Part shown: positions 1-51,749 of the stretch, one piece after another
Layout of the letters: each line of letters starts with the position of its first letter
How positions within the stretch are numbered: the first letter of the stretch is position 1
Assembly (NCBI GenBank): GCA_964483625.1
Contig: CAZABB010000001.1
Location: 3,222-67,221 of the forward strand
From: an uncultured Planctomycetia bacterium
GTDB lineage: Bacteria > Omnitrophota > Gorgyraeia > Duberdicusellales > 4484-171
DNA length: 64,000 nucleotides
Reading direction: 5' to 3'
The notes under the pieces: generated by a model
Told to the model about the DNA's origin: nothing
Database searches by the model: none
Seen by the model: the letters and a program-made list of their open reading frames with translations, nothing else
Made by a program: the position numbers and the translations under genes

Positions 1-615
1 GTAAGAAACATCGAAAAAGCGACGTCGCTGGGACTGCCGGTTCAGATAAATTTTACCGTAACCCGCGTTAATTTCCGTGAACTTCCTTCCGTATACAGAC
101 TCGCCCGGCGTCTGGGCGTCGGGACGTTTTCAGTCGGTTCCCTGAACAGAATAGGATGCGGCATGCAGAATAAGGATATTTTCTCCCTTCCTTACTTCTT
201 TTATATCTGCTGGGTAAAATTCTGGCAGCGCACACTCGCCCCCGGGGGAAAAACGTTATTTTACATAAAAGAACGGTGCGATGCGAATATCTACACGTAC
301 ATAGACCATAAGGGATATCTTCACTTTTGCACGTTAATACCCCGCACAATGCCTCTGGGCAATCTTCTTAAGGAAGATTTACTTACTATCTGGCATTCGG
401 ATACGTACACACGCCTGTTTGATCTTGACTCTGTCAAGGAGCCCTGCCGGTCCTGTTTTTTTGAAAGGGAATGTCCCAAAGGATGCCGGGCGGAGATTTA
501 CGCCAGAGAAAGCGATTTTTTTGCCGGTAACACTGATTGCCTGCGAGGTAAAGTATCCCAGAAAGTGAAAGGTCTGGCTTCCTTTTTGAAAAAATCCCCC
601 TCAGATCTTTCTTAA
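1..615 (+). CDS. radical SAM/SPASM-domain protein, C-terminal part (5' end lies outside the window)
   Basis: Frame 1 is open from nt 1 (VRNIEKATSLGLPVQINFTVTRV...) to the stop at 615. The C-terminus has a Cys-rich SPASM-like signature (GCG..C..GNLLKEDLLTIWHSD..CRSCFFERECPKGC). Confidence 0.75.
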   Translation, partial: VRNIEKATSLGLPVQINFTVTRVNFRELPSVYRLARRLGVGTFSVGSLNRIGCGMQNKDIFSLPYFFYICWVKFWQRTLAPGGKTLFYIKERCDANIYTYIDHKGYLHFCTLIPRTMPLGNLLKEDLLTIWHSDTYTRLFDLDSVKEPCRSCFFERECPKGCRAEIYARESDFFAGNTDCLRGKVSQKVKGLASFLKKSPSDLS

Positions 616-1833
616 AAATTTCTTTCTCTCTCCGGCTTTGACCGATTTTAATAAATTTATCGCGCTAACCCCGCAAAGACCATAGGTAGGCGGAATATCT
701 CCGTTACAGAGAGGATCTTTTTCCCGGCAGGAGCCTTTTTTGAGAAAAGAATACAGATGGCATCCCCCGCCGCACGTACTTCTGCTTTCACACCGCGCAC
801 AGCCCGCCGGCAGCGCATTCCATATCTTCCTTTTCTTTTGAAGTTTCCGGCATATACTGAGAAGGGATTCTTCCCCGATATTACCCACACGCAACGCCGC
901 GGGGGCTTCGGCACAGGGCAGCACGGACCCATCCTGCATGATCGCGGCGCTGTTATTACCAAAACACGTGCACAGATTGGAACGCAAAAGAGCTTTCGCT
1001 TCAATAACATCGTTCAAGCGGGAATACACCGCCTTTACCGATTTCGACAATTCGGACAGTTCTTCTCTCGACAATTCCAGTTCTTCATTTGTCTTCTCAT
1101 CTTTTACAGGGATATACCGTTCACAGACCGGCAAAGCCCCCATTTCAACGACATCATTGATTATCTCTCTGATATGGCCGATATTGAGTTTTGTCACGAC
1201 AACAAACGCAATCACCATAATGCCGTTTTGAACGCAGGCAGTGATATTTCTTTTTATTCTCTCGAATTGATCGCTACCGGTATGCTTTTCATATATCTTT
1301 CGGTTATAATCGTATTTGACACACAGAATAAGATTGCTATTCATTTTCTTCAATCGTTCCAGCCATTCGTCGTTTATATGCGTTCCATTCGTCACTATCG
1401 TCACCCCCATGCCTCTTCGCTGCGCCGCCGTTAAAAGCCGGTACAAATCCTTATACAAAAACGGCTCTCCTCCCATAAGATCGATATGGGAAACGCCTAT
1501 GGCTCCGGCTTCCTGAATAATACGGATCCATCGCTCGGAAGGGAATACTTCGGGCGCATTTTTGGCCGCGTAGCAGTAGATACAGTTGTAATTGCAGGCT
1601 GACGTAATATGCAGCTGAAGGGTCCGGACAAACGGGAATATTCTCCGGTATATCCTTTGCAGGATAAACCTGAGCCAAGAAATCCGGCAGAAACGATTCA
1701 ACAGCCTCCAGAACATCATCCGATGAAATAAACCGTATCTTTCTGAAAACCGTTCCATTATTCCGCCGTTTCCCGTTTTACCGGCATGATTCATCTTTGC
1801 GGCGGGTTTAGATATAACCTGAAAGGCCGGCAC
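601..1833 (-). CDS. radical SAM enzyme with full SPASM domain
   Basis: CNYNCIYC (CxxxCxxC) plus a GGEPF glycine motif. The C-terminus carries 7 Cys in SPASM spacing (CTCFGN...GNIGEESLL..CARCESRSTCGGGC). The true start is probably the internal Met at 1797 or 1758 (MERFSERY...). The 3' end overlaps the convergent gene at 1..615 by 15 nt. Confidence 0.85.
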   Translation of the reverse strand: MPAFQVISKPAAKMNHAGKTGNGGIMERFSERYGLFHRMMFWRLLNRFCRISWLRFILQRIYRRIFPFVRTLQLHITSACNYNCIYCYAAKNAPEVFPSERWIRIIQEAGAIGVSHIDLMGGEPFLYKDLYRLLTAAQRRGMGVTIVTNGTHINDEWLERLKKMNSNLILCVKYDYNRKIYEKHTGSDQFERIKRNITACVQNGIMVIAFVVVTKLNIGHIREIINDVVEMGALPVCERYIPVKDEKTNEELELSREELSELSKSVKAVYSRLNDVIEAKALLRSNLCTCFGNNSAAIMQDGSVLPCAEAPAALRVGNIGEESLLSICRKLQKKRKIWNALPAGCARCESRSTCGGGCHLYSFLKKGSCREKDPLCNGDIPPTYGLCGVSAINLLKSVKAGERKKFLRKI

Positions 1834-2855
1834 ATTATATTCGTATAAAAGACATTGACCAGAAGATTCCGGTACTCAGGAGCCCGTAGCATCTCTCTTA
1901 TCTCTTTCGAATTTTCCCCGAACCATATTTTTCTGAAATTATAATCGCAGTCCCGGAAATTCCCCAGCACGTAATCCCGTGAGTAACTCGCGCATAACTC
2001 CCCGGAAGACATTACGTAACCGGACGCGATCCCTTCGAAGTTGGCAAGAGAATCGTCATTAAGCAGGTGCGCATAAAACGCTTTCCGCAATTTTCCGATC
2101 AAAGCCGGCGTACCGCCGTTCTTGGTAAAATCGCTTTCTTTTAATAGAAATCTGAGGATATCGCGATATTCTTCTTTATCCGGGGTGATATCGAGATCAA
2201 AGTTGTATAAACGCGCTCTGTTTTCGGCCAATTCGGCGATATAAGAGTCCGGCTTTATTTTCCGGACGAATTCATAGATATCCCGGAAAAAAGCGGCATT
2301 GAACTTCGATATAACCGTGTTGACTCCGACCGTTAATTGAGAACTGGGTATCTTTCTGAGCCCATAAAACGTACGCAGAAACCTTTCGAAATTGCCGCTC
2401 AGGCCGCGTATTTCGTCATGCTTCCTGCCGACTCCGTCCAGGGAAAGATTGATGATCACATTCAAACCCGGGCACGTCTTCAGGATCGTCTCCGCGACCG
2501 AATGAATCCGCTCGGTAAGCGTTCCGTTGGTCGCGATGGTTAAAAACTCCGGTTTGGTCTTTTCATACACAACCTGTATAATACACGCCAGGTCGTCACG
2601 AAGAAAAGGCTCCCCGCCCATAATCGTGACGGAAAAAAGACGGCCATACCCGGTGAAAATCTTCTCGTATTCGGCCGGGGTCAGTTCCCGGGCCGGATCA
2701 CCCCGCGCTTTCCAGATATTGCAGGTCCGGCACCTTGAATTACATCGATCGGTAACACAAAGCGTGAGAACGCGCGGAAGCATTTTGGGATGTCCCGTCC
2801 ACCGGAAAAAATTATACCCTATTATGCTCGGTATGTGTTGAAACATAATCGTCAT
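1791..2855 (-). CDS. radical SAM enzyme with twitch/partial-SPASM C-terminus
   Basis: LCVTDRCNSRCRTC motif and a GGEPFL glycine motif. The C-terminal region has 3 Cys (CASY..RDCDY..NIMCRP). An alternative start is at 2783 (MLPRVLTL...). Confidence 0.8.
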   Translation of the reverse strand: MTIMFQHIPSIIGYNFFRWTGHPKMLPRVLTLCVTDRCNSRCRTCNIWKARGDPARELTPAEYEKIFTGYGRLFSVTIMGGEPFLRDDLACIIQVVYEKTKPEFLTIATNGTLTERIHSVAETILKTCPGLNVIINLSLDGVGRKHDEIRGLSGNFERFLRTFYGLRKIPSSQLTVGVNTVISKFNAAFFRDIYEFVRKIKPDSYIAELAENRARLYNFDLDITPDKEEYRDILRFLLKESDFTKNGGTPALIGKLRKAFYAHLLNDDSLANFEGIASGYVMSSGELCASYSRDYVLGNFRDCDYNFRKIWFGENSKEIREMLRAPEYRNLLVNVFYTNIMCRPFRLYLNPPQR

Positions 2856-4308
2856 CTGCCGTCCGTTTTCCCATTGTTCCCGAGAAAACTTTCCGCAAAA
2901 AATTATGAAAAAACCGGGAAAAAGGTCTTATTTTATAATACATCTTTCTATAGTAAGGGTACAGGAGAAGATAGAGAGTCGTATCTTTGATATGAATACC
3001 CGCCAGAATTCTGACAACCGGCAGCAGAAAATTTCTTTTGACTTCCGAATAAAACACATTGTGGTAGTAACAAATCTTCTTTCCCGAGATCGTCGGGAGA
3101 TCCAATATCGTTTTTCCCTCATTGTATGCCTTTACTTTTCTTTCACTTATGAGACCCTGCCGGACACACGTATCGTACAGTTCGGTCCCGGGATAAGGAC
3201 GGAAAACAAACTGAACCGGAAACGTGGGACGAACCTGCCGATTGAGTGCGATCGTCTGGCGCACGGTATGTTCATCTTCCCCGGGAAGCCCGATGAGATT
3301 CAGCCCAAACGTACGTATGCGGTATGTATCGCATAATTGAAACGCTCTCTTTATCTGTCCATCGGTAAGGTTTCTCCTAAGAAGCCGGTTGCGGAGATAG
3401 ACGTTACCGGATTCGATACCTATACATACCGTGTCGCATCCGGCGCGTTTCAGAAGACGCATCACATTCTCGTTCAGAACCTCCGGTCGGGCGTTTATTC
3501 CAAAAGGCATGTTAATTCTGGATTTATATTCTTTACAAAAACGACTCAAATATTCTTCTTCGAGAGTAAAGATGTCGTCATGAAACGTGATACGGTTGAA
3601 TGTATATCGCGCCGCCAGCTGTTCCAGCTCGCCTATTACATGCTCCACACTTCTTCGCCGTAAAAGCCGGCCTTTTCCCCTGTAAAGTTTGTGAAGGAAA
3701 TTATTTACGCAATAAGGACAATTATACAGGCATCCCCGGCTGGACATGACCTCGGCATCCTTAAATTTCCGGTCATTTATTATTTTCTGATAATCGAACA
3801 TTTCTCGATCCGCATACGGCAGTGAATCCAAATCTTCTATAAGCGGCCCGACCTCATTTTTTATCACGTGCCCGTTTTTATTGAACCAGAAGTTTTTGAT
3901 CCGGCTGATATCTTTTTGTCTTTCCAACGCCGTCACTAAATCCCGAACGGCGTATTCTCCTTCGCCCCGGCATATTCCCGTCACTCCTTTAAGCCCGATA
4001 CTTTCATCCGGGGCCGCGGTAGGATGCGGTCCGCCCAGGATCACCGGGAGACCATACCGGTCGTATATGTATCCCGCGTACCGGGCAACGAGCGTCATCT
4101 GATCCGAAGCGGCATATATGCCGATAAGACGAGGGTTCACCCTGTCGATACACGTATCGATGCCGGTAGGATGAAATGCGCGGGCGACGAAAAGCTCGAC
4201 AGCGTGTCCGGCATCCTTCAGGACGGCCGCAATACTCCCCAAGCCGTGATGATACCCTACATCATTGAAACCCGGACATTCAATGGGATATACGAACAGA
4301 ATGTTCAC
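2812..4308 (-). CDS. cobalamin-binding (class B) radical SAM enzyme
   Basis: N-terminal Rossmann-like B12-binding region (MNILFVYPIE...ILGGPHPT) followed by SRGCLYNCPYC, matching the xRGCxxxCxFC pattern of B12-rSAM proteins. Confidence 0.85.
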   Translation of the reverse strand: MNILFVYPIECPGFNDVGYHHGLGSIAAVLKDAGHAVELFVARAFHPTGIDTCIDRVNPRLIGIYAASDQMTLVARYAGYIYDRYGLPVILGGPHPTAAPDESIGLKGVTGICRGEGEYAVRDLVTALERQKDISRIKNFWFNKNGHVIKNEVGPLIEDLDSLPYADREMFDYQKIINDRKFKDAEVMSSRGCLYNCPYCVNNFLHKLYRGKGRLLRRRSVEHVIGELEQLAARYTFNRITFHDDIFTLEEEYLSRFCKEYKSRINMPFGINARPEVLNENVMRLLKRAGCDTVCIGIESGNVYLRNRLLRRNLTDGQIKRAFQLCDTYRIRTFGLNLIGLPGEDEHTVRQTIALNRQVRPTFPVQFVFRPYPGTELYDTCVRQGLISERKVKAYNEGKTILDLPTISGKKICYYHNVFYSEVKRNFLLPVVRILAGIHIKDTTLYLLLYPYYRKMYYKIRPFSRFFHNFLRKVFSGTMGKRTADDDYVSTHTEHNRV

Positions 4309-4312
4309 CGTA

Positions 4313-5359
4313 CTAAAACCAATTGCAGTGCAGGCACGGCTGAGGAGGACGACCGCTCCTCATCCGAATCCTCCAATCGATAAATCGCTCATTATTCCAT
4401 ATGCGCAAAGGATGCTCCGCGAAGATGTTCCCGAAAAACATATTATGCAATACGCAGCAGGGAAGGACAAATCCTTTCGATGTGATCGACATTTCATGCC
4501 AGGGCTGATAACAGCCCGTCCACCGCTGCGGCTGATTGAGTTTCGGCAGGGTGAGTTTTATGCCGTATTTTTCCGCGGCCTGCTCTGTCTCTCGAAAACG
4601 GGAACGGATCTCTGTTTTCTCTCCCGCCGGCAGGGTGCGTAGCGCATGTTCCGCCGTGGAAATGCCCGTTTCATACACATACTGTATATCCTGAACCCCG
4701 ACTTCGGATATCCCCAACCTGCGGGCAAGCTCTACCAACGCCGGTAATTCATGTATATTATTCCTCATCACAATTGAACGCAGACTCAGCCGAATGGAAC
4801 TTTGGCGTTCTTTCTTCAGTCGGATCATACATTCGATATTCCCCAGCAGCACACCAAATTTCACTCCCGCACGGATACTCTCCACGGTCGCGGCGGTTGC
4901 TCCGTCAATGGAGAAGAAAATCCGGTCAACTCCCGATGAAATCAGCCTCGACGATACGTCATTGGTCAACAGCATCCCGTTGGTGAAAAGAGCGACATGC
5001 AGTTTTCTCTTTTTTGCGTAATGGATCATTTTAAAAATATCCTTATGCAGTAAAGGTTCTCCCATGCCCAGCAGGGTAACGGCGTAAAGAAAAGGCATGG
5101 TATCGACTATTTTCTGAAAATGCCCGAAATCCATTTCGCTCAACCCGTCTTTCTTTATCTCCGGAGCAAACCGGGGACACATCCTACAGTTCAGATTGCA
5201 TTGATCGGTCACCCCGATGACGGCAGAGAAAGGGAAACGGGGAGACCGGGGAATTACGACCATCTGCACGGCATATAAAAACAAATGCGCGGCGCGGCGC
5301 AACGTAAGGTTTTGTAACATATATTTTATGGCAAAAATGATCCGGTTTTTTATCTTCAT
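4313..5359 (-). CDS. radical SAM enzyme with SPASM domain
   Basis: IGVTDQCNLNCRMC and GMGEPLL motifs. C-terminal SPASM region reads CYQPWHE..PCC..FGNIFAEHPLRIW...CLHC. Confidence 0.85.
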   Translation of the reverse strand: MKIKNRIIFAIKYMLQNLTLRRAAHLFLYAVQMVVIPRSPRFPFSAVIGVTDQCNLNCRMCPRFAPEIKKDGLSEMDFGHFQKIVDTMPFLYAVTLLGMGEPLLHKDIFKMIHYAKKRKLHVALFTNGMLLTNDVSSRLISSGVDRIFFSIDGATAATVESIRAGVKFGVLLGNIECMIRLKKERQSSIRLSLRSIVMRNNIHELPALVELARRLGISEVGVQDIQYVYETGISTAEHALRTLPAGEKTEIRSRFRETEQAAEKYGIKLTLPKLNQPQRWTGCYQPWHEMSITSKGFVLPCCVLHNMFFGNIFAEHPLRIWNNERFIDWRIRMRSGRPPQPCLHCNWF

Positions 5360-5456
5360 TACGGGAGACTATTCATCGCCAAAATCGCAATTCACCAATA
5401 CACACAAGGGAAAAGATTAACGTGCCGTATACGTTTCTTCCGACATAACGGAAAAT

Positions 5457-6425
5457 TCACGTCGTCGAAGCCGCCGTCTTCATCCGTTCCATCCTTTTCA
5501 GGGTCAGAGGGGGAACAAATCCGAATACCTTTGCCAACCGTTCTATTATCCTCACGGGTATCCTTACCAGTGCCGGGGGGATATGTACGATAAACGGCTT
5601 TTTGCGTAACGATTCCGCTAACAACGAAATCATTTCATTCAACGAATATGACTTTTTATCGCGTATTGCATACGTTTCGTTCCGATACCCCAAGGGCGCC
5701 GCCGAATGAATCGGGAACGGCGGGGAACTTCTATTCTCCCCAGGAGAAAAAACAGAATCGCGCGACGGGCATACGTCCCACTCCCAGGTCCGGGAAGCAT
5801 CGTTTTCAGTCTCTCTGTGGATAAGCGCGAGGGTCGCATCCACCAGATTATGCACGTCCAGAGCGGTAATCTTTCTGGTGCCGTCCCCGATGACAGGAAC
5901 GATACCGAGACGAATAAAGGAAGCCAGCTTCTTCAGTTCTTTATCCGGATTCTGCCAGTCATACACTAACGGAGGACGCACAATGACGTAAGGAACGCCG
6001 GATTTTTTGACGATCAGCTCAGATTCATATTTACTTCTTCCGTACGCCGATTCTCTATATTCGACGGCGGCAAGAGAAGAAAAATGGATAAAAGTTCCGA
6101 TCCGGCCGGCGTATTCTTTACACGCTTCAATAAGGTTCTTCGTTCCTTCTACGTTTACCTTTCTGTATTGTGCGTCGTATGACGACGAGACGGCGTTTAT
6201 CGTACCTATCGCCGCCAGGTGAACCACAATATCGATACCGGCCGCGATATGCCGCAACGTTTCCGGTTCACGTATGTCACCATACCACCGCCCGGCCTGA
6301 TCCGGCAGACCGGCGGTATCACTCGTTCTTCTTATCAGACACCGCACACGATGACCTTTTGCGGCCAACTCTCTCGTCACGTATCTGCCAATAAAACCCG
6401 TAGCGCCCGTTATGAGTATATGCAT
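5457..6425 (-). CDS. NAD(P)-dependent epimerase/dehydratase (atypical SDR)
   Basis: N-terminal ITGATGFIGRYV Rossmann motif and a YGRSK (YxxxK) catalytic motif. Confidence 0.8.
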   Translation of the reverse strand: MHILITGATGFIGRYVTRELAAKGHRVRCLIRRTSDTAGLPDQAGRWYGDIREPETLRHIAAGIDIVVHLAAIGTINAVSSSYDAQYRKVNVEGTKNLIEACKEYAGRIGTFIHFSSLAAVEYRESAYGRSKYESELIVKKSGVPYVIVRPPLVYDWQNPDKELKKLASFIRLGIVPVIGDGTRKITALDVHNLVDATLALIHRETENDASRTWEWDVCPSRDSVFSPGENRSSPPFPIHSAAPLGYRNETYAIRDKKSYSLNEMISLLAESLRKKPFIVHIPPALVRIPVRIIERLAKVFGFVPPLTLKRMERMKTAASTT

Positions 6426-6468
6426 TTCACATTATCTTTGGGAAAACGGAATATCCAAAATATTAGCT

Positions 6469-7515
6469 CTATTTACCGGCTCCGTCAAGATTCACCAAAA
6501 AATCTTTAATCACCCGGGCGATAACCCGATGCGCCTGCGGTCCAAAATGCCCGGTTTCTCTAAATGTCAGCCCTTCTTTTCGGGCCGCCTGAATGTGCGG
6601 CCGTACGAACACGCACGGCACATTCCTGCGTTGCCAGTAGACAGAGAATGCTTTTTCATATTTCAGCGTTTCCTCCGGGACATCTTCGAGAAATATATCG
6701 CTCAAGTATACAAAAACCGGAACCGCGTTCATGTCTCTTACCGTCCTGACGATTTCCTCGAGAATCGCATTGGTCGCTTTTTCTTCTTCCGAAATATCAT
6801 TCATTCGATGCGACAGCTTACAGACACACAGAGTTATCACATCGATAATCTTTGGTTTCCACCATTCGTTCTTCAGCATCGCTTCCGGCGGGAGAACCGG
6901 TGAATGTTCCTTCCTGAGCCGACCGTTCATCAATCTGAATCTTGGTTTCGCGTAATCCCGGAAGTACAGCATATTACGCACCATATCGACTTTCATAAAT
7001 CCCAGGATGACAATATCCGGTTTATATTTCACTCCTTCTTCCTGAAGATAGACCAGCATCTGGTCATGCCCGTATCCGTGTACGCCGAAATTCAGAACTT
7101 CGCTGGAGGGAATCATGCGCTGCAGATAGAAAGAAAACGTCTCCTCATCACTCACCTCTTCGCCGAACGTATACGAATCCCCGAGGATTAGAATCCTCAG
7201 CGTGCCCCGCGGTTTATCGTAGGCATACTCGCGGTTTCCTCTCAGCCCGCGCGAGTTTGAATTAAGAACCTCGCGGTTAAAATAAAGCATATCGTCCAAA
7301 CCGGCCTTCAAAGCCCATCCCCGTGTGGGGTGATATACGTCGAAGACATAGAAAATTTCAATTCCGTCTTCTTGATGGCGCCGTACCCACTTTATTCTCC
7401 AGGAAGCGCTACATTCATCCTGCAAAAATGATTCGTTCCTCAATATCAGACGGGATGAAATTTCAAAAAACAGGAAAAGCCCGATCACATAATACACATA
7501 CCGGTATTTTTTCAT
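6469..7515 (-). CDS. SGNH/GDSL-family hydrolase (possible glycan O-acyl esterase or transferase), N-terminal membrane anchor
   Basis: Hydrophobic N-terminus (YYVIGLFLFFEI), GDSL block I (ILILGDSYTFG), block II Gly, and a C-terminal TGHFGPQAH (DxxH-like) motif. Confidence 0.65.
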   Translation of the reverse strand: MKKYRYVYYVIGLFLFFEISSRLILRNESFLQDECSASWRIKWVRRHQEDGIEIFYVFDVYHPTRGWALKAGLDDMLYFNREVLNSNSRGLRGNREYAYDKPRGTLRILILGDSYTFGEEVSDEETFSFYLQRMIPSSEVLNFGVHGYGHDQMLVYLQEEGVKYKPDIVILGFMKVDMVRNMLYFRDYAKPRFRLMNGRLRKEHSPVLPPEAMLKNEWWKPKIIDVITLCVCKLSHRMNDISEEEKATNAILEEIVRTVRDMNAVPVFVYLSDIFLEDVPEETLKYEKAFSVYWQRRNVPCVFVRPHIQAARKEGLTFRETGHFGPQAHRVIARVIKDFLVNLDGAGK

Positions 7516-7548
7516 AAGCTTTCCGTCTCTTCCGTTAAGTGAACGAAG

Positions 7549-8373
7549 CTAGGTAAACGCGGCGCGGCAAAAAGACAGGCTCGCCCTGATATTACGGGCG
7601 ATCTTTTTTTTATTCCCGACGCCTAAAGCCCGAGAACTCATCTCGAGCGTAACGATCCCCGGATAACGATCCCGCTTCAGGCGCTTTAAAAACCGCTCTA
7701 ACGGCAATCGGCCTTCGGTTATCAGGCTGTGTTCTCTTCCGTTATAATTGGAAAGATGAACATGCGCTATGCGTTTCTTCAGGCATTCGTACGCTTCCAG
7801 GAGGTCTATTCCCCATGTGCCTACGTGAGTTGTATCGAACGCCACGTGATCAAACCTTTTGAGCTGATCGAGGTTATTGAACCGATACGGGTTCAGGCGG
7901 ACATCCCCCCAACGCATATCGGGCAGGTTTTCCAGGACGATGGTAACCGGGGTATTATCCTGGAAAGATTTCAATTCGCGCGTTAACCATCGAGCATACC
8001 GCTTCTGCCCACCGAAAGGAAAATGGAGCAATATGTCGGCAAGCATCTCGGTTGTTCCCACCCGTACCAAGCGCAACGGCGGATGAATCACTGTGACGCG
8101 GGCGCCGACCGCCTCGGCAAGGGCGATCGAATGCTTTACCCTTTCAATTTCATCCACGGGACAGCCGGAGATATATCCGTTAAAAGGGCTATGGATGCTC
8201 AGGATAGGAACTCCGTACTCATCCCGAAGACGATTCAAGTAGCCCGCCGAATACGCCGACCGATACCGGTTGGCCAATATTTCCAGACCGTCAAACCCGA
8301 CATTGTGTGCGAGCTCAAACGCATATCTGAGAGGATAAGGATATACTGAACCCGCTGATAAAGCGAACATCAT
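7549..8373 (-). CDS. sugar phosphate isomerase/epimerase (xylose-isomerase-like TIM barrel; IolE/IolI-like)
   Basis: IAHVHLSNYNG metal-site motif, a VIHPP motif and TIM-barrel-like periodicity, as in the AP endonuclease 2 / xylose isomerase-like family. Confidence 0.65.
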   Translation of the reverse strand: MMFALSAGSVYPYPLRYAFELAHNVGFDGLEILANRYRSAYSAGYLNRLRDEYGVPILSIHSPFNGYISGCPVDEIERVKHSIALAEAVGARVTVIHPPLRLVRVGTTEMLADILLHFPFGGQKRYARWLTRELKSFQDNTPVTIVLENLPDMRWGDVRLNPYRFNNLDQLKRFDHVAFDTTHVGTWGIDLLEAYECLKKRIAHVHLSNYNGREHSLITEGRLPLERFLKRLKRDRYPGIVTLEMSSRALGVGNKKKIARNIRASLSFCRAAFT

Positions 8374-8385
8374 ACATCTCTTTAT

Positions 8386-9477
8386 TTATGTATCGATCCG
8401 GCCGGCGACAAAATCGTCAACCATCCGTTTCGCCTGAAAATCAGAATATTGCACCGGGGGACGCTTCATCGCGTACGCCGAAAGAGAAGTTAAAACCCCG
8501 CCTCGCCTCCTGTCCAGAGCCAATTTGCACCCCCGGATCACATCGATAACAACCCCGGCACTGTTGGGAGAATCTTCCACCGAAAGTTTCACATCGAGTT
8601 CTATCGGCAGCCCCCCGAATCCCCGTCCTTTCAGAGTGATGAAACAAACTTTGTTGTCTTTTAACCAAGATACATAGTCGGTAGGACTTATATGGACATC
8701 TTCTTCCGCGAACGGACTGTCCGATTGCGATTTTACTGATTCGGCTTTTGATATCTTCTTCAGCTTGAGCCTTTTAAAATCGAGCATATTAAGAAAATCG
8801 GTATTCCCTCCGACATTCAGCTGATATGTGCTGTCAACCTTTACGCCTCTTTCGCTGAATAACTTCACTAATGTTCTATGGAGTACCGTCGCGCCTAACT
8901 GAGATTTGATATCATCACCCACCAGAGGAAGGTTCTTATCTTTAAATTTCTCCGCCCATTGCGAATCGGAAGCTATAAAAACGGGGATATTGTTCACAAA
9001 GGCGGTATGAGAATCCAGACAGCATTGCGCATAGAATTTCGTCGCTTGCTCGGCACCAACGGGGAGATAATTCAACAGCATATCGGCTTTACTTTCCTTT
9101 AAAAGCGCAACGATATCACAGGACGGCGCGGCCGAAATCAAGAACGTTTTTTCCGAAGGGTAGTTCTTCATCTGGTCGTTCACTCCATCCCCGACGACAC
9201 CCATATTCACTTTTACGCCGCGGGCGGGTATATCGTTCTGAAAGATGGTACCGCAGTTTGGTCTTTCAAAGATGGCACGCGCGATATCTTTTCCCACTTT
9301 TCGTTCATCGACATCAATCGCGGCGACCACTTCTATATCTTCCGGGGTATATCCGCCCATACTGTAGGACGTCAGCCCCATATCGCTGTTCCTCCTGTTT
9401 CTATAGTATTCTATTCCCTGAAGCAAACTGCTGGCACAATTGCCGACACCGACAATGGCAATCTTTATCCTGCTCAT
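8386..9477 (-). CDS. ino1: myo-inositol-1-phosphate (inositol-3-phosphate) synthase
   Basis: KIAIVGVGNCASSL Rossmann motif plus blocks conserved in bacterial/archaeal MIPS (VNNIPVFIASD..., LVGDDIKSQLGAT, QLNVGGNTDFLN, SPNSAGVVIDVIRGCKLALDR). The start is trimmed to MSRIKIAIVG at 9477; the longest ORF extends to 9513. Confidence 0.8.
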   Translation of the reverse strand: MSRIKIAIVGVGNCASSLLQGIEYYRNRRNSDMGLTSYSMGGYTPEDIEVVAAIDVDERKVGKDIARAIFERPNCGTIFQNDIPARGVKVNMGVVGDGVNDQMKNYPSEKTFLISAAPSCDIVALLKESKADMLLNYLPVGAEQATKFYAQCCLDSHTAFVNNIPVFIASDSQWAEKFKDKNLPLVGDDIKSQLGATVLHRTLVKLFSERGVKVDSTYQLNVGGNTDFLNMLDFKRLKLKKISKAESVKSQSDSPFAEEDVHISPTDYVSWLKDNKVCFITLKGRGFGGLPIELDVKLSVEDSPNSAGVVIDVIRGCKLALDRRRGGVLTSLSAYAMKRPPVQYSDFQAKRMVDDFVAGRIDT

Positions 9478-10220
9478 CCGGCTTCCTCTTTCTTCCGGCT
9501 GTCTTTTACGCATACAAACAGAAAATTACGGGCGAACAGCGCGGGAAGAATTTTGTACAGTCCGGAATAATATATCCCTTCCCCTATTATTCTCAATTTT
9601 TTCCAGGGTTCCTCGCTTATCCGTTGCGGAAAATAATACTTCCGGGAAATACAGACCAGACCGGTTTTCTCAACCAGCTTCTCCAGGACATTCCGGGAAA
9701 AGACACGGATATGTTCCGAAAACAATGCATCCCGCTTGTGATATACGTCCGTTATATCTTTAAATGCCCCGCAGAGAAAATAAAACCTGTTCACTATATT
9801 CAGCATATTGGGAACCGAGATGACCAGAATGCCGTTGTCTTTCACAACCCGTCTACACTCGCCCAGGAGGGATTCCGGATCAAGCGCATGTTCCAATACA
9901 TCCATAATTAAAATAGCATCGAAAGACTTGTCGGTAAAGGGGATTCCCCCGTCAATATCGCCCAAAACAACTTTAACACCTTTGGCCGAAGCCTCCTTGA
10001 GCGCTTTCTCGCACATATCAAGGCCTATGACCGTATGGGCGGCGGTTAAATCTTCGCTCATACTGCCGCGGCCGCACCCCATATCCAGGATAAGAAAATT
10101 ATTCCGCTGTATTTTCTTTTTCACTAACTCTCGTCTCCATTTCTCATAAGGCCCCAGTGCCGTTTCCTGCCAAACTGCGAGACGATGCCAGTAATCTGTG
10201 GAATATTTTTTTATATCCAT
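9474..10220 (-). CDS. class I SAM-dependent methyltransferase
   Basis: Motif I LDMGCGRGSMSE and motif II/III region (VLGDID...ILIMDVLEH). Confidence 0.8.
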   Translation of the reverse strand: MDIKKYSTDYWHRLAVWQETALGPYEKWRRELVKKKIQRNNFLILDMGCGRGSMSEDLTAAHTVIGLDMCEKALKEASAKGVKVVLGDIDGGIPFTDKSFDAILIMDVLEHALDPESLLGECRRVVKDNGILVISVPNMLNIVNRFYFLCGAFKDITDVYHKRDALFSEHIRVFSRNVLEKLVEKTGLVCISRKYYFPQRISEEPWKKLRIIGEGIYYSGLYKILPALFARNFLFVCVKDSRKKEEAG

Positions 10221-10226
10221 ACGTTT

Positions 10227-11249
10227 CTATCCGCCGCTCATAGGGGCGGATTCCTGACCCCGGTAAACCGGCCGGGAAGGCAGTCTCTGTTTGAAAACAA
10301 TTTCGTAGAGAACACCCGTCTTAAATATCAATCTGGTAACAAGCACGACGAAAAATTCACCAAGAGCACGGAAAGGAAGCTGGAATTCTTCCCGGTGTTT
10401 TACCATGGACGCGGCGACGATCAGGAAGGGAGACAGGATAAAAAATACCGTCTTTCTGATCCCTGCGGGAACATTCACATCAAAATGCCTGTTGAAAAAA
10501 TACATCTGCGCATACCCTCTTCCATAAATAAAGTACTGTTTCGCCAGGGCGGCAAACGCAGCCCGGTGATAATGCTTCACGGTGATACCGGGAATGTAGA
10601 GCAGTTTTCTCCCCTCACGGCAAAGAGATAAATGCAGACTAAGATCATCACAATTTATTAAACGTTCATCAAATCTGAATTTTTTGAATATATCTTTCTT
10701 ATAGGAAATATTGCAGCCGCGAAGGTGTACCGCCTCAAAAGGCTTATCTTCCCGCCTGAAATACCGGCGCAGAAATGAGGAATCCGCCGGAGTATTTTCA
10801 ATAATATCATTGTCGTCCCATATGATCTGACTGACACGGTGGAAAAAATTATTTTTTAAAGCGGGGATCGCTTTCCCCCCTATCGCCATGACGCGGGGAT
10901 ACATATTGTGGAATTTCAAAATATTCTCGACCCACATCTTATCGCAAACGCAATCATCGTCGGTTAACGCGATCACATCTCCCGCACAATACCGCAGACC
11001 CGTATTCCTTGCCGTGGCGATATTCCTCCGTCTGCGTTCCGTGACGCATCGAAACGTCGGGAAACGGACCCGGTATCCGGCAACGACCTCCGGAGTGTTA
11101 TCCGTCGAACCATTATCCACAACAATAACCTCTTCGGGCATTCTGGTCTGAACAAGCAGACTGTCCAGACAGTTTTTCAAAAGCTCCGCTCTATTGAGCG
11201 TGACGACCAGCACCGAGATTTTCGGGGGAGAACATGTCGCATTTCTCAT
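10227..11249 (-). CDS. GT2 family glycosyltransferase with C-terminal transmembrane anchor
   Basis: ISVLVVTLNRAELL..VIVVDNGSTDNT..ALTDDDC (GT-A DxD region). The C-terminal ~100 aa are hydrophobic. Confidence 0.85.
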   Translation of the reverse strand: MRNATCSPPKISVLVVTLNRAELLKNCLDSLLVQTRMPEEVIVVDNGSTDNTPEVVAGYRVRFPTFRCVTERRRRNIATARNTGLRYCAGDVIALTDDDCVCDKMWVENILKFHNMYPRVMAIGGKAIPALKNNFFHRVSQIIWDDNDIIENTPADSSFLRRYFRREDKPFEAVHLRGCNISYKKDIFKKFRFDERLINCDDLSLHLSLCREGRKLLYIPGITVKHYHRAAFAALAKQYFIYGRGYAQMYFFNRHFDVNVPAGIRKTVFFILSPFLIVAASMVKHREEFQLPFRALGEFFVVLVTRLIFKTGVLYEIVFKQRLPSRPVYRGQESAPMSGG

Positions 11250-12783
11250 AAAGTTCTACGAAGAGACCATCGAATTCCCTGCTTTCTAATTTCCTGTATT
11301 TTTTTCCTAACCATTCCTTCACTGCCAGAGAGTTCGGTTCCAGAACACCCGTTCTGAACCAGGAAGAAGAAATCAACCATATCCTTTCGAAATTATACTT
11401 TTCGATATCCCGGCTTAAATCAATTACTCCCGGCGGGACTATCCCATCCTGCCTTTCCCGCTCCTCCCACGAACGTATCTCCTTACGCCAATATGTGTCC
11501 TGCTCGGAATAGAATGTGAAATAATACGAACCTACGGGATCACGACAGCCAAAATAGTACCATAAAGAGGGCACACTGCTCGGATGCGTGTGCGCGATGA
11601 TATCATTTTTTTCCAGTTTCCTCTTTAGATATCCCGCCACGGAAACAAAATCCTTCTTAGGACACACTCCCACCGAATGCCGATTGCCGTATCCCAAAGG
11701 CATAAAGCCCGTATAATAATTAGACAGAGATACCACCGTCAACAGAACGACTCCGGCGCCGAGAAGAAACCTCACCCCGTATGCGCCTATACCGGTCACT
11801 CCCGAAGCGACGATAATATAATAAAACGGGGAAACCGCCATATTTTGCCGGTCAAGGTATATGGGTATCCATTGGGAGAAAAAAAAAGAGGCAAAAACAG
11901 GTGCAAATAAAAATACAAGCAGAAACGACACGTTTTGAGCGCGGCGGCGGCAGTAGAAAATACCGCCGATAAACAACAGAGTACATAAAATCGATCCCGG
12001 AAGATAGGCGTGGTTCGGAGCGTTGTACCCCAACGTGAAATTTTCAAAAGTAGCTAAAAGAGAACGAGGAACAGGCGTAGACAGCCAAAACGCATCTTTT
12101 ACCCAGTTGAGGTGGCTGAAAGCCTCCTTAAACCAGGGACTGAAGACAGGGAGAATCACAAGATAACTTATCAACCATTTCCTGACCGGTACTTTTTCTC
12201 TTCGAAAAAAAAGGAAAGGTATACCGGCCAAAATCACCCAGAAGGTAAAATAAGACACATAAAGGCCGAGAATAGCCGAGAGCGCAAAAGAAATCCAAAG
12301 CCACGATTTATCTTCTTTTACGGCGCGTACAAAAAAATACACTATTGCCATTATGAAACAAGGCAACAAAGTGTATTCTCTCACCTCCTGCGCATACCAG
12401 ATATGAAGGGGAGAAATAGCCAGGAGAAACGCGCTGATCAATCCCGTCTTTCTGTCGACAAACAGACTCGCCAATGTATATATCCAGAATATGGAGATCA
12501 CGCCGAACAGCACCGAAAGGGAACGCAGAGCAGCTTCACCTCTGCCAAATACTCTGATCCAGAGGCTCAGTAACGCATAATATAAAGGAGGCTGGGGACT
12601 TGATGAAGAATAATTTTCCACGATACGTACACTCACGGCTTCATCATACCAGAGATCATTGGCATCCAATCTATACATCCTCAGAGCCGTTCCGAGGAGG
12701 ATAATGAGAAAGAGGACAATAATGACCTTTTGATTTCGCATATGCAGGAGAAGTGTCATAAGGATATGCCGGTTTTCATGCAA
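11191..12783 (-). CDS. GT-C fold glycosyltransferase, ArnT/PMT-like (GT39/GT83-type; polyprenyl-phosphate-sugar dependent)
   Basis: About 12 predicted TM helices. N-terminal loop-1 DE motif region (ALRMYRLDANDLWYDEAVS) is typical of the dolichyl-P-mannose protein mannosyltransferase / ArnT family. Confidence 0.7.
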   Translation of the reverse strand: MHENRHILMTLLLHMRNQKVIIVLFLIILLGTALRMYRLDANDLWYDEAVSVRIVENYSSSSPQPPLYYALLSLWIRVFGRGEAALRSLSVLFGVISIFWIYTLASLFVDRKTGLISAFLLAISPLHIWYAQEVREYTLLPCFIMAIVYFFVRAVKEDKSWLWISFALSAILGLYVSYFTFWVILAGIPFLFFRREKVPVRKWLISYLVILPVFSPWFKEAFSHLNWVKDAFWLSTPVPRSLLATFENFTLGYNAPNHAYLPGSILCTLLFIGGIFYCRRRAQNVSFLLVFLFAPVFASFFFSQWIPIYLDRQNMAVSPFYYIIVASGVTGIGAYGVRFLLGAGVVLLTVVSLSNYYTGFMPLGYGNRHSVGVCPKKDFVSVAGYLKRKLEKNDIIAHTHPSSVPSLWYYFGCRDPVGSYYFTFYSEQDTYWRKEIRSWEERERQDGIVPPGVIDLSRDIEKYNFERIWLISSSWFRTGVLEPNSLAVKEWLGKKYRKLESREFDGLFVELYEKCDMFSPENLGAGRHAQ

Positions 12784-12834: not shown

Positions 12835-13854
12835 TTAAACCGGGGGTTTATCTTGCTCGACCTCCCATATATAGGGGTTTTTCTCCCGTATGTAGAAGTC
12901 GCATAAGCCCATTATTCTTGCATACGCCTCAAGAATCACGGCACCCGCCATCCAGAAAAAATAATTGAAGCCGCCTTCCAAATTGCGCACAACCAGGCTG
13001 AAAATGCGCAGATTGCTCAGGCTGGAAACGGCATACCCCGCTGTTTTTTTCAAATGAAGATGCCCGGTATAAACTCTCCTCCTCTGAGCAAGATAGGCCT
13101 TTACGGTACGAGGCCCCCTGTTGTAAACAACCGCTTCAGGAACGTAACATAAACGATACCCTTTCCGTACAACCAATGCCTCGATCGCCGCCTCATCGAC
13201 CGCCGTGTCGCCCGGTATTCTCGTTACCACCGCCTTTCTAAAAGCAACCAGCTCTCCCAATTTGGGATATTTTAACGCTAATTTATGATGCAGCAACCAC
13301 AGCCGATGCACGGCAAATCCCAGGAAATTCTCGGGAGTATCCCGGGGAACGGAACGGCCGCCGACCATTCCTGTATCGGGGATCGTAAAGGGCTTGAGAA
13401 GATTCTTAATCGTGTCTTTACACGGCACGGTGTCGCCGCTCTCTAGAATACAGATATCCGCAGAGGTCTGTTGGAGAAAATAATTTACCGCCGAGGCTTT
13501 TCCCAACCGTTCTTTTTGAACGAAAAGCCGTATTCGTCTATCGCGTTCTTTAAATCTCTTTACAACGTCTTCGGTATTGTCGGTACATCCGCTGGCTATA
13601 ACCACTATTTCATGAATAGTAAAACATCCCGGTTCCTGAGCGATTAATCCCTCTAATAACCGACTAATGTTGGCCTGCTCATTATAAACGGGTATCCCGA
13701 TACTGCAGGTAAGAATCCTTGTTTCCGTATGCGTAGCATCCATGGGCGAAACGAAACAAATCATTGTTAAAAGAAATTCTCCCTCCCTATGAAATATACG
13801 TATTATCTCATAAAAATTACTCAATATGAAGCGTTTCATCGGAATACCAAACAC
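12835..13854 (-). CDS. GT2 family glycosyltransferase
   Basis: IGIPVYNEQANISRLL...VVIASGCTDNTEDVV...ILESGDTV, GT-A fold motifs. The start is possibly the internal Met at ~13743. Confidence 0.8.
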   Translation of the reverse strand: MFGIPMKRFILSNFYEIIRIFHREGEFLLTMICFVSPMDATHTETRILTCSIGIPVYNEQANISRLLEGLIAQEPGCFTIHEIVVIASGCTDNTEDVVKRFKERDRRIRLFVQKERLGKASAVNYFLQQTSADICILESGDTVPCKDTIKNLLKPFTIPDTGMVGGRSVPRDTPENFLGFAVHRLWLLHHKLALKYPKLGELVAFRKAVVTRIPGDTAVDEAAIEALVVRKGYRLCYVPEAVVYNRGPRTVKAYLAQRRRVYTGHLHLKKTAGYAVSSLSNLRIFSLVVRNLEGGFNYFFWMAGAVILEAYARIMGLCDFYIREKNPYIWEVEQDKPPV

Positions 13855-14061
13855 CGAAACAAAAGGCCGGTCTCCCTCCGCATGAGGCTTTCCACAAATA
13901 TTCTTTTTAAAATAATTCTTTTCCTTTTTGAATCTTTTCCGACAGGGATATGTTTTATCTTTACTTGTCTCTCACATTTTGGCATAATTACTTTTACGCA
14001 TAGGAAAAGTTTTTCCCTTATCCGACAGACACCTGCCTCACTCCTGAGGCTTACGGAAAGA
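13855..14061. promoter_or_regulatory. AT-rich divergent intergenic region between oppositely oriented operons (probable divergent promoters)
   Basis: A 207-bp non-coding gap between the minus-strand GT2 gene and the plus-strand B12-rSAM gene. A GGAAAG Shine-Dalgarno-like element lies 7 nt before the ATG at 14062. No specific -35/-10 elements are called. Confidence 0.25.
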
Positions 14062-15429: not shown

Positions 15430-15481
15430 AACTGTATTTCAAATAGTCGTTATATATAGAAGGAAAAATTTACCGTACATC

Positions 15482-18966: not shown

Positions 18967-19022
18967 CCAGAGGACATTCAATCCATGGCGGCGGGATTTT
19001 TCATTCTACCGGAATATCAGAC

Positions 19023-40289: not shown

Positions 40290-40304
40290 CGGGGTTTGAG
40301 GATT

Positions 40305-44924: not shown

Positions 44925-45001
44925 GAGCGTTGAAAGTATCTTAACATCGTTACCGCCGATAATCAACGGGCTCAAACCGCCAGTCTTGACGAAGAGGAAA
45001 A

Positions 45002-45970: not shown

Positions 45971-45993
45971 GCGTATGATAGAATCAGTTTACC

Positions 45994-50342: not shown

Positions 50343-50344
50343 TC

Positions 50345-51745: not shown

Positions 51746-51749
51746 ATGA

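Follow-up and report, generated by a model that had tools for sequence, protein, structure and literature searches.

Five radical SAM (rSAM) genes lie side by side in the first 5359 nucleotides of the window, the whole 64-kb stretch of DNA that was analysed. A first-pass annotation had described five neighbouring rSAM-type ORFs here; Pfam searches agree, and its account proved largely right, with four corrections. Gene 1 (1–615, plus strand) is truncated by the window edge and encodes the C-terminal 204 aa of an rSAM/SPASM protein (Pfam SPASM, 36.6 bits). An overlapping contig, L001, extends it by 110 residues of rSAM core, ending at what appears to be the last cysteine of its CxxxCxxC motif. 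Gene 1 has a complete SPASM motif of seven cysteines (CX2CX5CX3C at 445–486), following the pattern CX9-17GX4C ... CX2CX5CX3C ... C that defines a full SPASM domain for genes 1 and 2. Gene 2 (601–1833, minus strand; likely start at 1794, giving 397 aa; Radical_SAM 83 bits, SPASM 27 bits) carries CX3CX2C at 1573–1596, CX2CX5CX3C at 760–801 and the same complete seven-cysteine motif. In gene 3 (1791–2855, minus strand; likely start at 2783, giving 330 aa; Radical_SAM 57 bits), CX3CX2C lies at 2721–2744 and is followed by a degenerate twitch domain: Pfam gave no SPASM match, and all four auxiliary-cluster cysteines conserved in its homologues are lost. Gene 4 (2812–4308, minus strand; CX3CX2C at 3709–3732) is a class B rSAM gene whose N-terminal cobalamin domain, as first proposed, was recovered by Pfam (B12-binding 48 bits, Radical_SAM 65 bits). 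Gene 5 (4313–5359, minus strand; Radical_SAM 54 bits, SPASM 46 bits) has CX3CX2C at 5177–5200 and a twitch-type C-terminal domain, its auxiliary cysteines being reduced to C283, C301/C302 and C342xxC345, the twitch pattern. The CxxxCxxC motif ascribed to all five genes is therefore present in genes 2–5, whereas that of gene 1 falls outside the window, and Cys-rich SPASM/twitch C-termini occur in three genes (full SPASM in 1 and 2, twitch in 5) rather than four, gene 3 having been wrongly included.

The five genes do not form one unit. Gene 1 lies on the opposite strand to genes 2–5 and converges on gene 2, and therefore belongs to a different transcription unit, while genes 2–5 are the last four of a tightly spaced 12-gene minus-strand run. 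The run opens with a GT2 glycosyltransferase (12835–13854), a GT-C (PMT_2, ArnT-like) membrane glycosyltransferase (11191–12783) and a second GT2 (10227–11249). It continues with a SAM-dependent (class I) methyltransferase (9474–10220), a myo-inositol-3-phosphate synthase homologue (8386–9513; Pfam 119.5 bits, TIGR03450 411 bits versus a cut-off of 638), a xylose-isomerase-like TIM barrel (7549–8373; a sugar or inosose isomerase/dehydratase fold), an SGNH/GDSL-like protein (6469–7515; Pfam match under the gathering score) and an NAD-dependent SDR epimerase/dehydratase (5457–6425). It closes with the twitch, B12, cluster-less twitch and SPASM rSAM genes. The sugar epimerase and inositol module noted earlier beside the rSAM genes are thus present, and the gene ends are indeed tightly packed: genes 1 and 2 overlap convergently by 15 nt, and the other junctions measure −4, +28 and +4 nt when gene-caller starts from contig L001 are used. 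The single gap in the region 1–5359 is 97 nt, and spacing across the whole run ranges from −59 to +97 nt. From this spacing we infer that the run is an operon; promoter and terminator scans gave results at chance level.

Nor are the five genes a separate group, since 11 further rSAM genes follow in the window. In total, rSAM genes account for 16 of its 49 large ORFs, a density far beyond chance, and are interspersed with glycosyltransferases, carbamoyltransferases, deacetylases, one amidotransferase and an ABC-2 exporter. Beyond the run lie three B12-binding rSAM genes (13789–18966, plus strand), the last two being tandem copies that are 74% identical, and an ABC-2 type exporter comprising ATPase and permease (18963–20634, plus strand). 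Between 20680 and 33901, five rSAM/SPASM genes (at 20680, 24715, 26706, 31541 and 32663) are interleaved with one GT4, four GT2, one GT-C and one polysaccharide deacetylase gene. The minus-strand segment 33792–39384 encodes a NodU/CmcH-type carbamoyltransferase, two small membrane ORFs, a WbuX-like N-acetyl-sugar amidotransferase, an SGNH-TPR protein and a GT2. Within 42804–55880 there are two B12-rSAM genes (50345 and 52808) and one rSAM/SPASM gene (51750), together with genes for a GH5-like protein, a deacetylase, a PP-loop ATPase-like protein, a GT-C and two carbamoyltransferases. We conclude that the five genes lie at the edge of a locus for building a cell-surface sugar polymer, at least 64 kb long. 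Of the 16 rSAM genes, 14 were scanned (all but 17227 and 52808), and not one reached a curated enzyme-family cut-off; nor did the GT2s reach a curated family.

The SPASM class is dominated by peptide and protein maturases, and genes 1 and 2 share with these (anSME, PqqE, SkfB, MftC, sactisynthases) the seven-cysteine motif for two auxiliary clusters. The five proteins could be RiPP- or anSME-type maturases whose product is then glycosylated by the glycan genes, the substrate being encoded beyond the window or being a larger protein encoded nearby (a TPR protein or an unknown Cys-rich one). Consistent with this, the best solved relative of gene 2 is SkfB, with StsB and PqqE among its top curated models, and the nearest solved relatives of gene 1 are PqqE and BlsE; for several GT2s the best model, although below threshold, is the mycofactocin glycosyltransferase MftF. 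Heavily modified RiPPs of the proteusin/polytheonamide type also typically have clusters with multiple B12 and SPASM rSAM genes, as seen here. However, no curated cut-off is reached by gene 1 or 2, the anSME model scores 17.6 bits (cut-off 349), PqqE ∼80 (381) and MftC ∼67 (265), and the window holds no sulfatase, PqqD/RRE, RiPP protease or leader peptidase. The initial claim that no peptide gene lies nearby also stands: no ORF in the window resembles a precursor, and the surroundings of 39 gene-3-like or gene-5-like loci (≥100 bits) show no conserved small ORF family. A PqqD-family gene does precede one gene 5 homologue (50% identity) by 165 nt, but the evidence is one 3.1-kb contig that ends in an IS110 transposase, and the PqqD match scores 57 against a cut-off of 80. 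Considering also that GT2 and carbamoyltransferase genes are repeatedly linked to relatives of genes 3 and 5, we regard peptide or protein maturation as distinctly improbable.

The genomic surroundings of homologues point elsewhere. In unrelated genomes, relatives of genes 2, 3 and 5 adjoin genes for glycosyltransferases and sugar modification. The gene 2 family is small (46 representative clusters at E ≤ 1e-30), and, in contrast to the SPASM maturases, its members occur in rSAM-dense loci with B12-rSAM, GT-C, GT2, DegT sugar aminotransferase and CapK-like ligase genes; the DegT-type aminotransferase was found in one such locus (L134) and not in the window. In the nearest gene 2 contexts (Ca. 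Muirbacterium and the P0247 contig), the neighbours are B12-rSAM genes, with no glycosyltransferase nearby. Among 80 GTDB loci with gene 5 relatives, 41 have a glycosyltransferase within 5 kb and 27 have both a carbamoyltransferase and a glycosyltransferase, as a carbamoyltransferase–GT2 cassette. One such cassette is self-contained (carbamoyltransferase-GT2-DUF1622-DUF421-rSAM-methyltransferase-GT2), and a gene 5 homologue with 37% identity lies in the order SDR-GT4-rSAM-deacetylase-GT2-rSAM-deacetylase-FemAB. The suggestion that a glycan or small molecule is a likelier substrate than a peptide is thus favoured by several independent lines of evidence, against which stand the full-SPASM genes 1 and 2, nearest to PqqE and SkfB, and the PqqD-linked homologue. 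Sugars or inositol, not peptides, are the most likely substrates of the rSAM enzymes of the locus.

An analogy to BtrN-type twitch dehydrogenases had been drawn for this block of genes. BtrN, the butirosin 2-deoxy-scyllo-inosamine dehydrogenase (PDB 4M7T; 250 aa), is the founding twitch-domain rSAM enzyme. The analogy holds for gene 5, at the level of sequence, and not for the other four. When a family profile of gene 5 was compared with all solved structures, BtrN ranked first (E 1.3e-25), in two aligned stretches spanning the core and the twitch domain with all auxiliary cysteines included. Both proteins have CX3CX2C and a C-terminal beta-hairpin/helix domain with four cysteines in register (C...GX4C ... 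CX2C); moreover, BtrN acts on a cyclitol, and the inositol-3-phosphate synthase gene precedes gene 5 by four genes in the same run. Gene 5 differs in being ∼100 residues longer (348 aa) and only ∼20% identical, and in its context, which is a glycan locus of the cell envelope and not an antibiotic cluster, the window having no aminoglycoside genes such as one for 2-deoxy-scyllo-inosose synthase. Nor did the fold search bear the analogy out: with Foldseek, BtrN was 39th for the gene 5 model, behind DesII, SuiB, BlsE and SkfB (TM ∼0.6–0.7 each). DesII and BlsE, which act on TDP-sugar and nucleoside-sugar substrates, were the top structural matches (E 1.9e-15 and 3.8e-14) and are also among the sequence matches of genes 1, 2 and 5. 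Their identity is 17–19%, however, and the peptide-modifying SuiB and SkfB score equally well; the fold does not distinguish substrate classes.

The top curated models of gene 5 are TIGR04317, a tungsten-cofactor oxidoreductase maturase (142 bits), and TIGR04311, a ‘putative metalloenzyme maturase’ (140 bits). Such models also lead for the genes at 24715 and 26706 (91–98 bits), and AhbD leads for extended gene 1 (120 bits), raising the possibility that gene 5 and similar SPASM genes mature a metallo-cofactor enzyme and that gene 1 resembles the heme enzymes AhbD and NirJ. These scores reach roughly 25–40% of the cut-offs (380–500), the window has no tungsten or molybdenum oxidoreductase, heme or siroheme genes, and the partners elsewhere are glycan genes, the 80 gene 5 loci apparently having no conserved oxidoreductase or tetrapyrrole linkage. 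We therefore consider this role highly improbable.

Gene 4 shares with AprD4 (apramycin 3'-deoxygenation), HpnJ (conversion of hopanoid glucosamine to a cyclitol ether) and other class B enzymes an N-terminal B12-binding domain that precedes the rSAM core. AprD4 is its best solved relative and HpnJ its best curated model, but its scores are far from both cut-offs (AprD4 75 versus 500, HpnJ 136 versus 578), and sequence alone cannot tell whether it would be a methylase, a dehydratase or a rearrangement enzyme. The HpnJ match, the second-best match to the lipid-biosynthesis B12 rSAM TIGR04072 (98 bits) and the hopanoid-associated HpnA as best model of the SDR (75 bits) suggest that some or all of the five enzymes might tailor a lipid (a membrane lipid, polyprenyl carrier or glycolipid head group) instead of a glycan, as do HpnJ, HpnH and HpnR in hopanoids, the tetraether synthase Tes and a ladderane-linked B12 rSAM. 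Genes 1, 2 and 5 all count GDGT-MAS among their solved relatives, and GT2 and GT-C chemistry uses lipid-linked sugars. Yet the three scores are all 4- to 8-fold under curated cut-offs, the 49 ORFs scanned include no squalene-hopene cyclase, fatty-acid or isoprenoid synthesis gene or CDP-alcohol phosphatidyltransferase, and the neighbouring genes are of the kinds usual in loci that assemble and export polysaccharides. A lipid substrate thus seems unlikely, and it would merge with glycan tailoring if the substrate were a lipid-linked sugar.

Gene 3 homologues (36–46% identity) adjoin a GT2 like that opening the run in 13 of 14 loci, although the order and orientation of the two genes vary. One of the 13 is an archaeal contig, on which the rSAM and GT2 genes overlap by 4 nt and have only housekeeping genes around them, an arrangement that would suit a lipid head-group module. 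A gene 4 homologue (195 bits) in contig L097 adjoins a gene-3-like rSAM gene and a GT2. The opening order GT2, GT-C, GT2 recalls the ArnC/ArnT and GtrB/Gtr pathways, and the tie of gene 3 to the first GT2 is comparable to the place of ArnD, which acts between ArnC and ArnT. The difference is that the modifier of the lipid-linked intermediate would here be an rSAM enzyme; our literature search found no precedent for a characterised rSAM modifier between GT2 and GT-C transfers.

Taken together, we think it probable that the five genes encode anaerobic rSAM enzymes tailoring sugars or cyclitols for an envelope glycoconjugate, each chemical step being proposed from distant analogy (18–25% identity to BtrN and AprD4). 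The synthase would convert glucose-6-phosphate to inositol-3-phosphate. In BtrN-like gene 5, a 5'-deoxyadenosyl radical would take the carbinol hydrogen and the electron would pass to the single auxiliary cluster. Needing neither NAD nor O2, this reaction would turn a secondary alcohol of a cyclitol or sugar into a ketone, which the TIM-barrel and SDR proteins could then isomerise, dehydrate or re-reduce. Gene 4 might perform B12-dependent C-methylation of an unactivated carbon, or an AprD4/HpnJ-type dehydration or rearrangement. Gene 3 would act on the product of its partner GT2, probably a lipid-linked sugar, in a reaction that is probably redox-neutral, e.g. epimerisation, because the auxiliary cluster is absent. 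Outside the membrane, the GT-C would add the modified unit to the growing polymer. Genes 1 and 2, the full SPASM enzymes, have the least defined roles in this pathway. With its many Fe-S, SAM and B12 enzymes, the locus suggests that the host, an uncultured bacterium, is an anaerobe.

All five genes at the start of the window belong to the radical SAM (rSAM) superfamily, to which a protein was assigned when it carried the CX3CX2C motif for the SAM-binding [4Fe-4S] cluster and scored above the Pfam gathering score (29.5 bits for PF04055). Genes 2 (601-1833), 3 (1791-2855), 4 (2812-4308) and 5 (4313-5359), all on the minus strand, have the motif and match Radical_SAM at 83.1, 56.9, 64.9 and 54.3 bits, respectively. 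The ORF list and the Pfam matches agree with the first-pass annotation on five adjoining genes of this type and on their positions. Its claim of a CxxxCxxC motif in all five holds for genes 2 to 5, but that of gene 1 (1-615, plus strand) lies outside the window, which encodes only the last 204 residues of the protein. A 10.4-kb Logan contig overlapping window positions 1-10110 (L001) extends the sequence upstream by 330 bases and thus supplies 110 residues of rSAM core for gene 1; these align with positions 21-185 of the AhbD model and stop at a Cys before 'YLADEG', a candidate third Cys of the motif. Genes 1 to 5 share 20-32% identity with one another and with the window's remaining rSAM genes (the pair at 15482 and 17227 excepted), so that the five are old paralogues, and recent duplication was ruled out as their origin.

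The five proteins differ in their auxiliary domains. A SPASM domain (PF13186/TIGR04085) was recognized by the seven-Cys motif CX9-15GX4C, a gap, CX2CX5CX3C, a second gap and a final Cys, for two auxiliary [4Fe-4S] clusters, and a BtrN-type twitch domain as a truncated SPASM-like domain with one auxiliary cluster held by four Cys (a hairpin Cys pair plus CX2C). The full seven-Cys motif, with a first part of CX9-17GX4C, is found in gene 1 (C93...C110, C149-C162, C180; Pfam SPASM 36.6 bits) and in gene 2 (C275/277...C294, C332-C345, C356/363; 26.9 bits). Gene 5 matches SPASM at 45.9 bits with the first half of the motif and the CX2C only. In an alignment of gene 5 with 13 homologues, C283, C301, C302, C342 and C345 are the sole invariant Cys of the C-terminal domain, a predicted cluster site of the one-cluster twitch arrangement. 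Gene 3 has no SPASM match and none of the ligand Cys. Four Cys are conserved in 15 sampled members of its family ('PCYAG', 'G.V.PCC' and 'C.C'), and the residues of gene 3 at these positions are N, S/Y, Y and N; despite a homologous domain, it is predicted to be a twitch-derived protein that has lost the auxiliary-cluster site. The 'four SPASM/twitch' C-termini previously proposed therefore resolve, as judged from sequence, into two SPASM domains (genes 1 and 2), one twitch domain (gene 5) and one degenerate twitch domain (gene 3), with gene 4 as the class B member.

The assignment of gene 4 to class B is based on an N-terminal B12-binding domain fused to the rSAM core (PF02310, 47.7 bits against a cut-off of 32.1, residues 21-124; PF04055 at residues 189-354), and the single cobalamin-domain gene of the first-pass annotation was correctly identified. 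Among solved structures, gene 4 is closest to AprD4 (2.9e-17), an enzyme that reportedly does not use cobalamin, and among curated models it matches HpnJ best. All subfamily scores remain below their cut-offs (HpnJ 136 against 578 bits, AprD4 75 against 500, BchE 94.5 against 481, PhpK 97.5 against 600).

For gene 5, the family profile retrieves BtrN (4M7T) as the top match among all solved structures (E 1.3e-25). The alignment falls into separate stretches, in the core and in the twitch domain, and in the latter C283, C301 (or C302), C342 and C345 align with the BtrN domain and its auxiliary Cys. An AlphaFold2 model built on the 14-sequence alignment (pLDDT 81.8, pTM 0.84) confirms the predicted fold of an rSAM barrel followed by a C-terminal hairpin/helix domain. 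When this model was compared with the PDB using Foldseek, the sugar enzymes DesII and BlsE came out on top, the peptide enzymes SuiB and SkfB scored about equally, viperin and MoaA had similar scores, and BtrN ranked 39th. Since these enzymes score alike, the fold is uninformative and structure was dropped as a means of telling a sugar from a peptide substrate. Orthology to BtrN, a DOIA dehydrogenase, was also rejected. A BtrN orthologue would have an abridged barrel (about 250 aa), act on an aminocyclitol and lie among genes for butirosin or another 2-deoxystreptamine compound; gene 5 encodes 348 aa with a longer barrel, and neither a 2-deoxy-scyllo-inosose synthase nor aminoglycoside genes occur among the window ORFs. 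The analogy with BtrN drawn in the first-pass annotation is thus retained for gene 5 at the level of the sequence profile, but not for fold ranking or orthology.

No curated NCBIfam cut-off is reached by any of the 14 rSAM genes scanned (all 16 of the window save those at 17227 and 52808), and none of BtrN proper, anSME, PqqE, MftC, HpnJ, AprD4 or the other curated families tested fits any of the five. HMM comparison gave SPASM matches for genes 1, 2 and 5, with anSME and PqqE far under their cut-offs. PqqE scores 80-82 bits against 381, MftC 57-67 against 265 and StsB 77 against 625. The anSME model (TIGR03942) is listed for gene 1 only, at 17.6 bits against 349 (for genes 2, 3 and 5, the best 25 families are listed), and a sulfatase domain is absent from all 49 window ORFs; an anSME beside a sulfatase, which had been named as evidence that would overturn a glycan or small-molecule substrate, was thus not encountered. 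A role in the maturation of a cofactor, in place of a glycan, is considered very improbable.

Maturation of a peptide or protein by these enzymes is improbable, although less so. A RiPP maturase was taken to combine a curated cut-off with a precursor peptide and a PqqD-type recognition element (RRE), separate or fused, in the locus. The window contains no PqqD homologue (tblastn), no candidate precursor in its gaps and no peptidase domain in its ORFs (Pfam), and assignment of the genes as PqqE-, MftC- or sactisynthase-type maturases was therefore rejected on missed cut-offs and on the missing precursor and RRE. Region 1-5359 has a single gap, of 97 nt; in the larger gaps of the window are a pair of small hydrophobic ORFs beside a carbamoyltransferase gene, a single membrane ORF of 89 aa, and a tRNA gene accompanied by a tandem repeat. 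Around relatives of genes 3 and 5, no small-ORF family is common to the loci beyond near-duplicate contigs. The earlier statement that no peptide gene is present is borne out by these searches. The sole peptide-type association seen is on a 3.1-kb contig (L085, 358-1866), where a PqqD-family ORF lies 165 nt upstream of a gene 5 homologue (50% identity); however, this ORF scores 57 bits against a cut-off of 80, and an IS110 transposase gene follows the homologue.

The rSAM feature is real and larger than described. The five genes do not form a unit of their own: genes 5, 4, 3 and 2 are the final four of a 12-gene minus-strand run with spacings of -59 to +97 nt, and gene 1 converges on them from outside the window. 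The run opens with a GT2 glycosyltransferase gene (12835-13854), followed by genes for a GT-C/PMT_2 protein (11191-12783), a second GT2 (10227-11249), a SAM methyltransferase (9474-10220), an inositol-3-phosphate synthase (8386-9513; TIGR03450, 411 bits against a cut-off of 638), a xylose-isomerase-like TIM barrel (7549-8373), an SGNH-like protein (6469-7515) and an SDR epimerase/dehydratase (5457-6425). The tight packing previously reported is confirmed: by the L001 gene calls, which start gene 2 at 1794 and gene 3 at 2783, the spacings between genes 2 to 5 are -4, +28 and +4 nt, and genes 1 and 2 are convergent with a 15-nt overlap. Promoter and terminator scans for the boundaries of the run gave counts at or under shuffle expectation.

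A CX3CX2C scan combined with Pfam identified 11 further rSAM genes in the rest of the window, five of the B12 class (starting at 13789, 15482, 17227, 50345 and 52808) and six of the SPASM class (20680, 24715, 26706, 31541, 32663 and 51750). Interleaved with them are genes for further glycosyltransferases (six GT2, three GT-C, one complete GT4 and, at the window end, a GT4 fragment), for three carbamoyltransferases of the NodU/CmcH type, for two polysaccharide deacetylases, and for an N-acetyl-sugar amidotransferase resembling WbuX (175 bits against 203), TPR proteins, a GH5-like protein and an ABC-2 exporter. Given this interleaving of rSAM and glycan genes, we conclude that the window is a single, very large glycoconjugate locus; a third of its genes encode rSAM enzymes, and the only interruptions are purC, a PEPCK gene and a tRNA-Leu gene.

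The neighborhoods of relatives recall this setting. Relatives of gene 3 (36-46% identity) were found at 14 loci in a JGI metagenome scan, and at 13 of them a GT2 resembling that at 12835-13854 (176-304 bits) lies within 2.6 kb, usually directly adjacent to the rSAM gene, in varying order and orientation. On an archaeal metagenome contig (L089, with PolD subunit and DUF655 genes nearby), the GT2 and twitch rSAM genes overlap by 4 nt (9061-10999) and are isolated in a housekeeping neighborhood, with DNA polymerase D genes on one side and a Na/Ca exchanger gene on the other. GT2 and twitch rSAM thus form a two-gene module common to archaea and bacteria. At another of these loci (L097), the gene-3-like rSAM gene is accompanied by a gene-4-like B12 rSAM gene (195 bits), a second GT2, more rSAM genes, an AsnB-type amidotransferase gene and an ORF like the WbuX-like protein of the window (96 bits).

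Among the 80 loci listed for gene 5 relatives in GTDB representatives (26-36% identity; the true number is at least 80), 41 have a glycosyltransferase gene within 5 kb and 27 have both a carbamoyltransferase and a glycosyltransferase gene at that distance, in Chloroflexota, Actinomycetota, Planctomycetota, Acidobacteriota, Gemmatimonadota, Cyanobacteria, Pseudomonadota and Binatia. In an Actinomycetota MAG (L014, 5884-12820), the order is carbamoyltransferase-GT2-DUF1622-DUF421-rSAM/SPASM-methyltransferase-GT2 between unrelated flanks, a cassette that appears to be uncharacterized and that, by analogy, resembles the NodC/NodS/NodU logic with an added rSAM enzyme. Such cassettes and similar loci occur in at least eight phyla. 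Each carbamoyltransferase gene of the window (33792-35483, 48678-50342 and 54126-55880) adjoins an rSAM gene (32663, 50345 and 52808, respectively), an adjacency that mirrors the cassette of the 27 unrelated genomes among the 80 loci listed. A closer homologue of gene 5 (37% identity) is embedded in SDR-GT4-rSAM-deacetylase-GT2-rSAM-deacetylase-FemAB.

Gene 2 belongs to a small family, with 46 of 1.84 billion representative clusters at E<=1e-30, whose members lie beside B12 rSAM genes in rSAM-dense loci. One such locus (L134, 1-21179) packs nine rSAM genes into 21 kb, where they are accompanied by genes for a CapK-like ligase, an ATP-grasp protein, a sugar aminotransferase of the DegT type, a GT-C and a GT2. 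Seven rSAM-like ORFs share 20 kb in an Elusimicrobiaceae MAG (L075), and Ca. Muirbacterium halophilum (L133, 1-12574) has seven rSAM genes in 12.6 kb. In the latter, DNA repeat arrays occupy intergenic positions between the rSAM genes (4050-4830, 8590-8710 and 9720-9880), with a repeat of about 27-30 nt, the period being inferred from repeated peptide units. The repeats are open in all frames and yield repetitive pseudo-peptides; the resulting pseudo-ORFs were rejected as precursors.

Taken together, the glycan or small-molecule, BtrN-like direction of the first-pass annotation is supported, but unproven, by the context of genes 2, 3 and 5 and by the sequence of gene 5, and the five enzymes probably tailor a glycan or cyclitol. 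The 12-gene run would build and transfer a modified unit, either a sugar or an inositol derivative. Gene 5 may act as a BtrN-like alcohol dehydrogenase independent of NAD and O2, with the TIM-barrel and SDR proteins working up the resulting ketone, and gene 4 could carry out a C-methylation or a dehydration/rearrangement. Gene 3 would act on the product of its partner GT2; since it lacks an electron-accepting cluster, a redox-neutral step such as epimerization is more likely. The GT-C enzyme would then transfer the unit on the outer side of the membrane. By analogy, the overall logic would be that of GT2 plus GT-C lipid-linked pathways, with BtrN as mechanistic analogue of gene 5, AprD4 and HpnJ as those of gene 4, and DesII and BlsE as those of the rSAM enzymes in general. 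Tailoring of a lipid or lipid head group is unlikely, and would overlap with glycan or cyclitol tailoring if the substrate is lipid-linked.

To our knowledge, sugar-modifying rSAM enzymes come almost wholly from antibiotic pathways (BtrN, DesII, AprD4, GenK and HygY/SpeY), with a few from lipid head groups. In the literature, twitch and B12 rSAM enzymes are described in aminoglycoside, RiPP and lipid pathways; searches of it returned no characterized sugar-modifying rSAM enzyme in envelope polysaccharide assembly and no description of rSAM-dense envelope-glycan loci. We suggest tentatively, and on balance leaning against it, that uncultured anaerobic bacteria and archaea use many uncharacterized twitch, SPASM and B12 rSAM enzymes as routine tailors of surface glycans or glycolipids. 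Such enzymes would install C-methyl, deoxy, keto/epimer or carbocyclic (inositol-derived) units without O2 or NAD. The pairing of GT2 and twitch rSAM in bacteria and archaea (here 12835-13854 with gene 3) and the carbamoyltransferase-GT2-rSAM cassette of at least eight phyla would then be new, widespread modules, and the window, with its 16 rSAM genes, an extreme example encoding a highly unusual polymer. If so, the locus and the recurring modules would indicate that anaerobes harbor a large reservoir of radical carbohydrate chemistry, as yet untouched, and that candidate phyla have cell-surface structures missed by current schemes of glycan prediction. Concrete, testable enzyme-partner pairs are the GT2 at 12835-13854 with gene 3, and gene 5 with the inositol-3-phosphate synthase.

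Other features of the window were also recorded. Two tandem B12-binding rSAM genes (15482-17230 and 17227-18966) are 74% identical, the sole recent duplication among the 16; the best curated model for the first, the one of the two that was scanned, is a KedN5-type C-methyltransferase (154 bits against 700). Housekeeping genes purC and a GTP-dependent PEPCK gene sit mid-locus at 39402-42164. Apart from one Logan fragment (85% identity), nothing matches the PEPCK at more than 66%, and its closest named relatives, at 56-60%, are scattered across Omnitrophota, Margulisiibacteriota, WOR-1/WOR-3, Elusimicrobia and Deltaproteobacteria, so that the gene assigns its source to no named phylum. The tRNA-Leu(GAG) gene (42229-42312, minus strand) overlaps at its 5' end a perfect tandem repeat (42298-42562; 124 bp, 2.1 copies, 100% identity), which may be left over from an integration site or be an artefact of assembly. 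Finally, the gene at 55890-58121 (minus strand), flanked by those for a carbamoyltransferase and a TPR protein of 1105 aa, encodes a 743-aa protein with 15 Cys and no Pfam or NCBIfam match.
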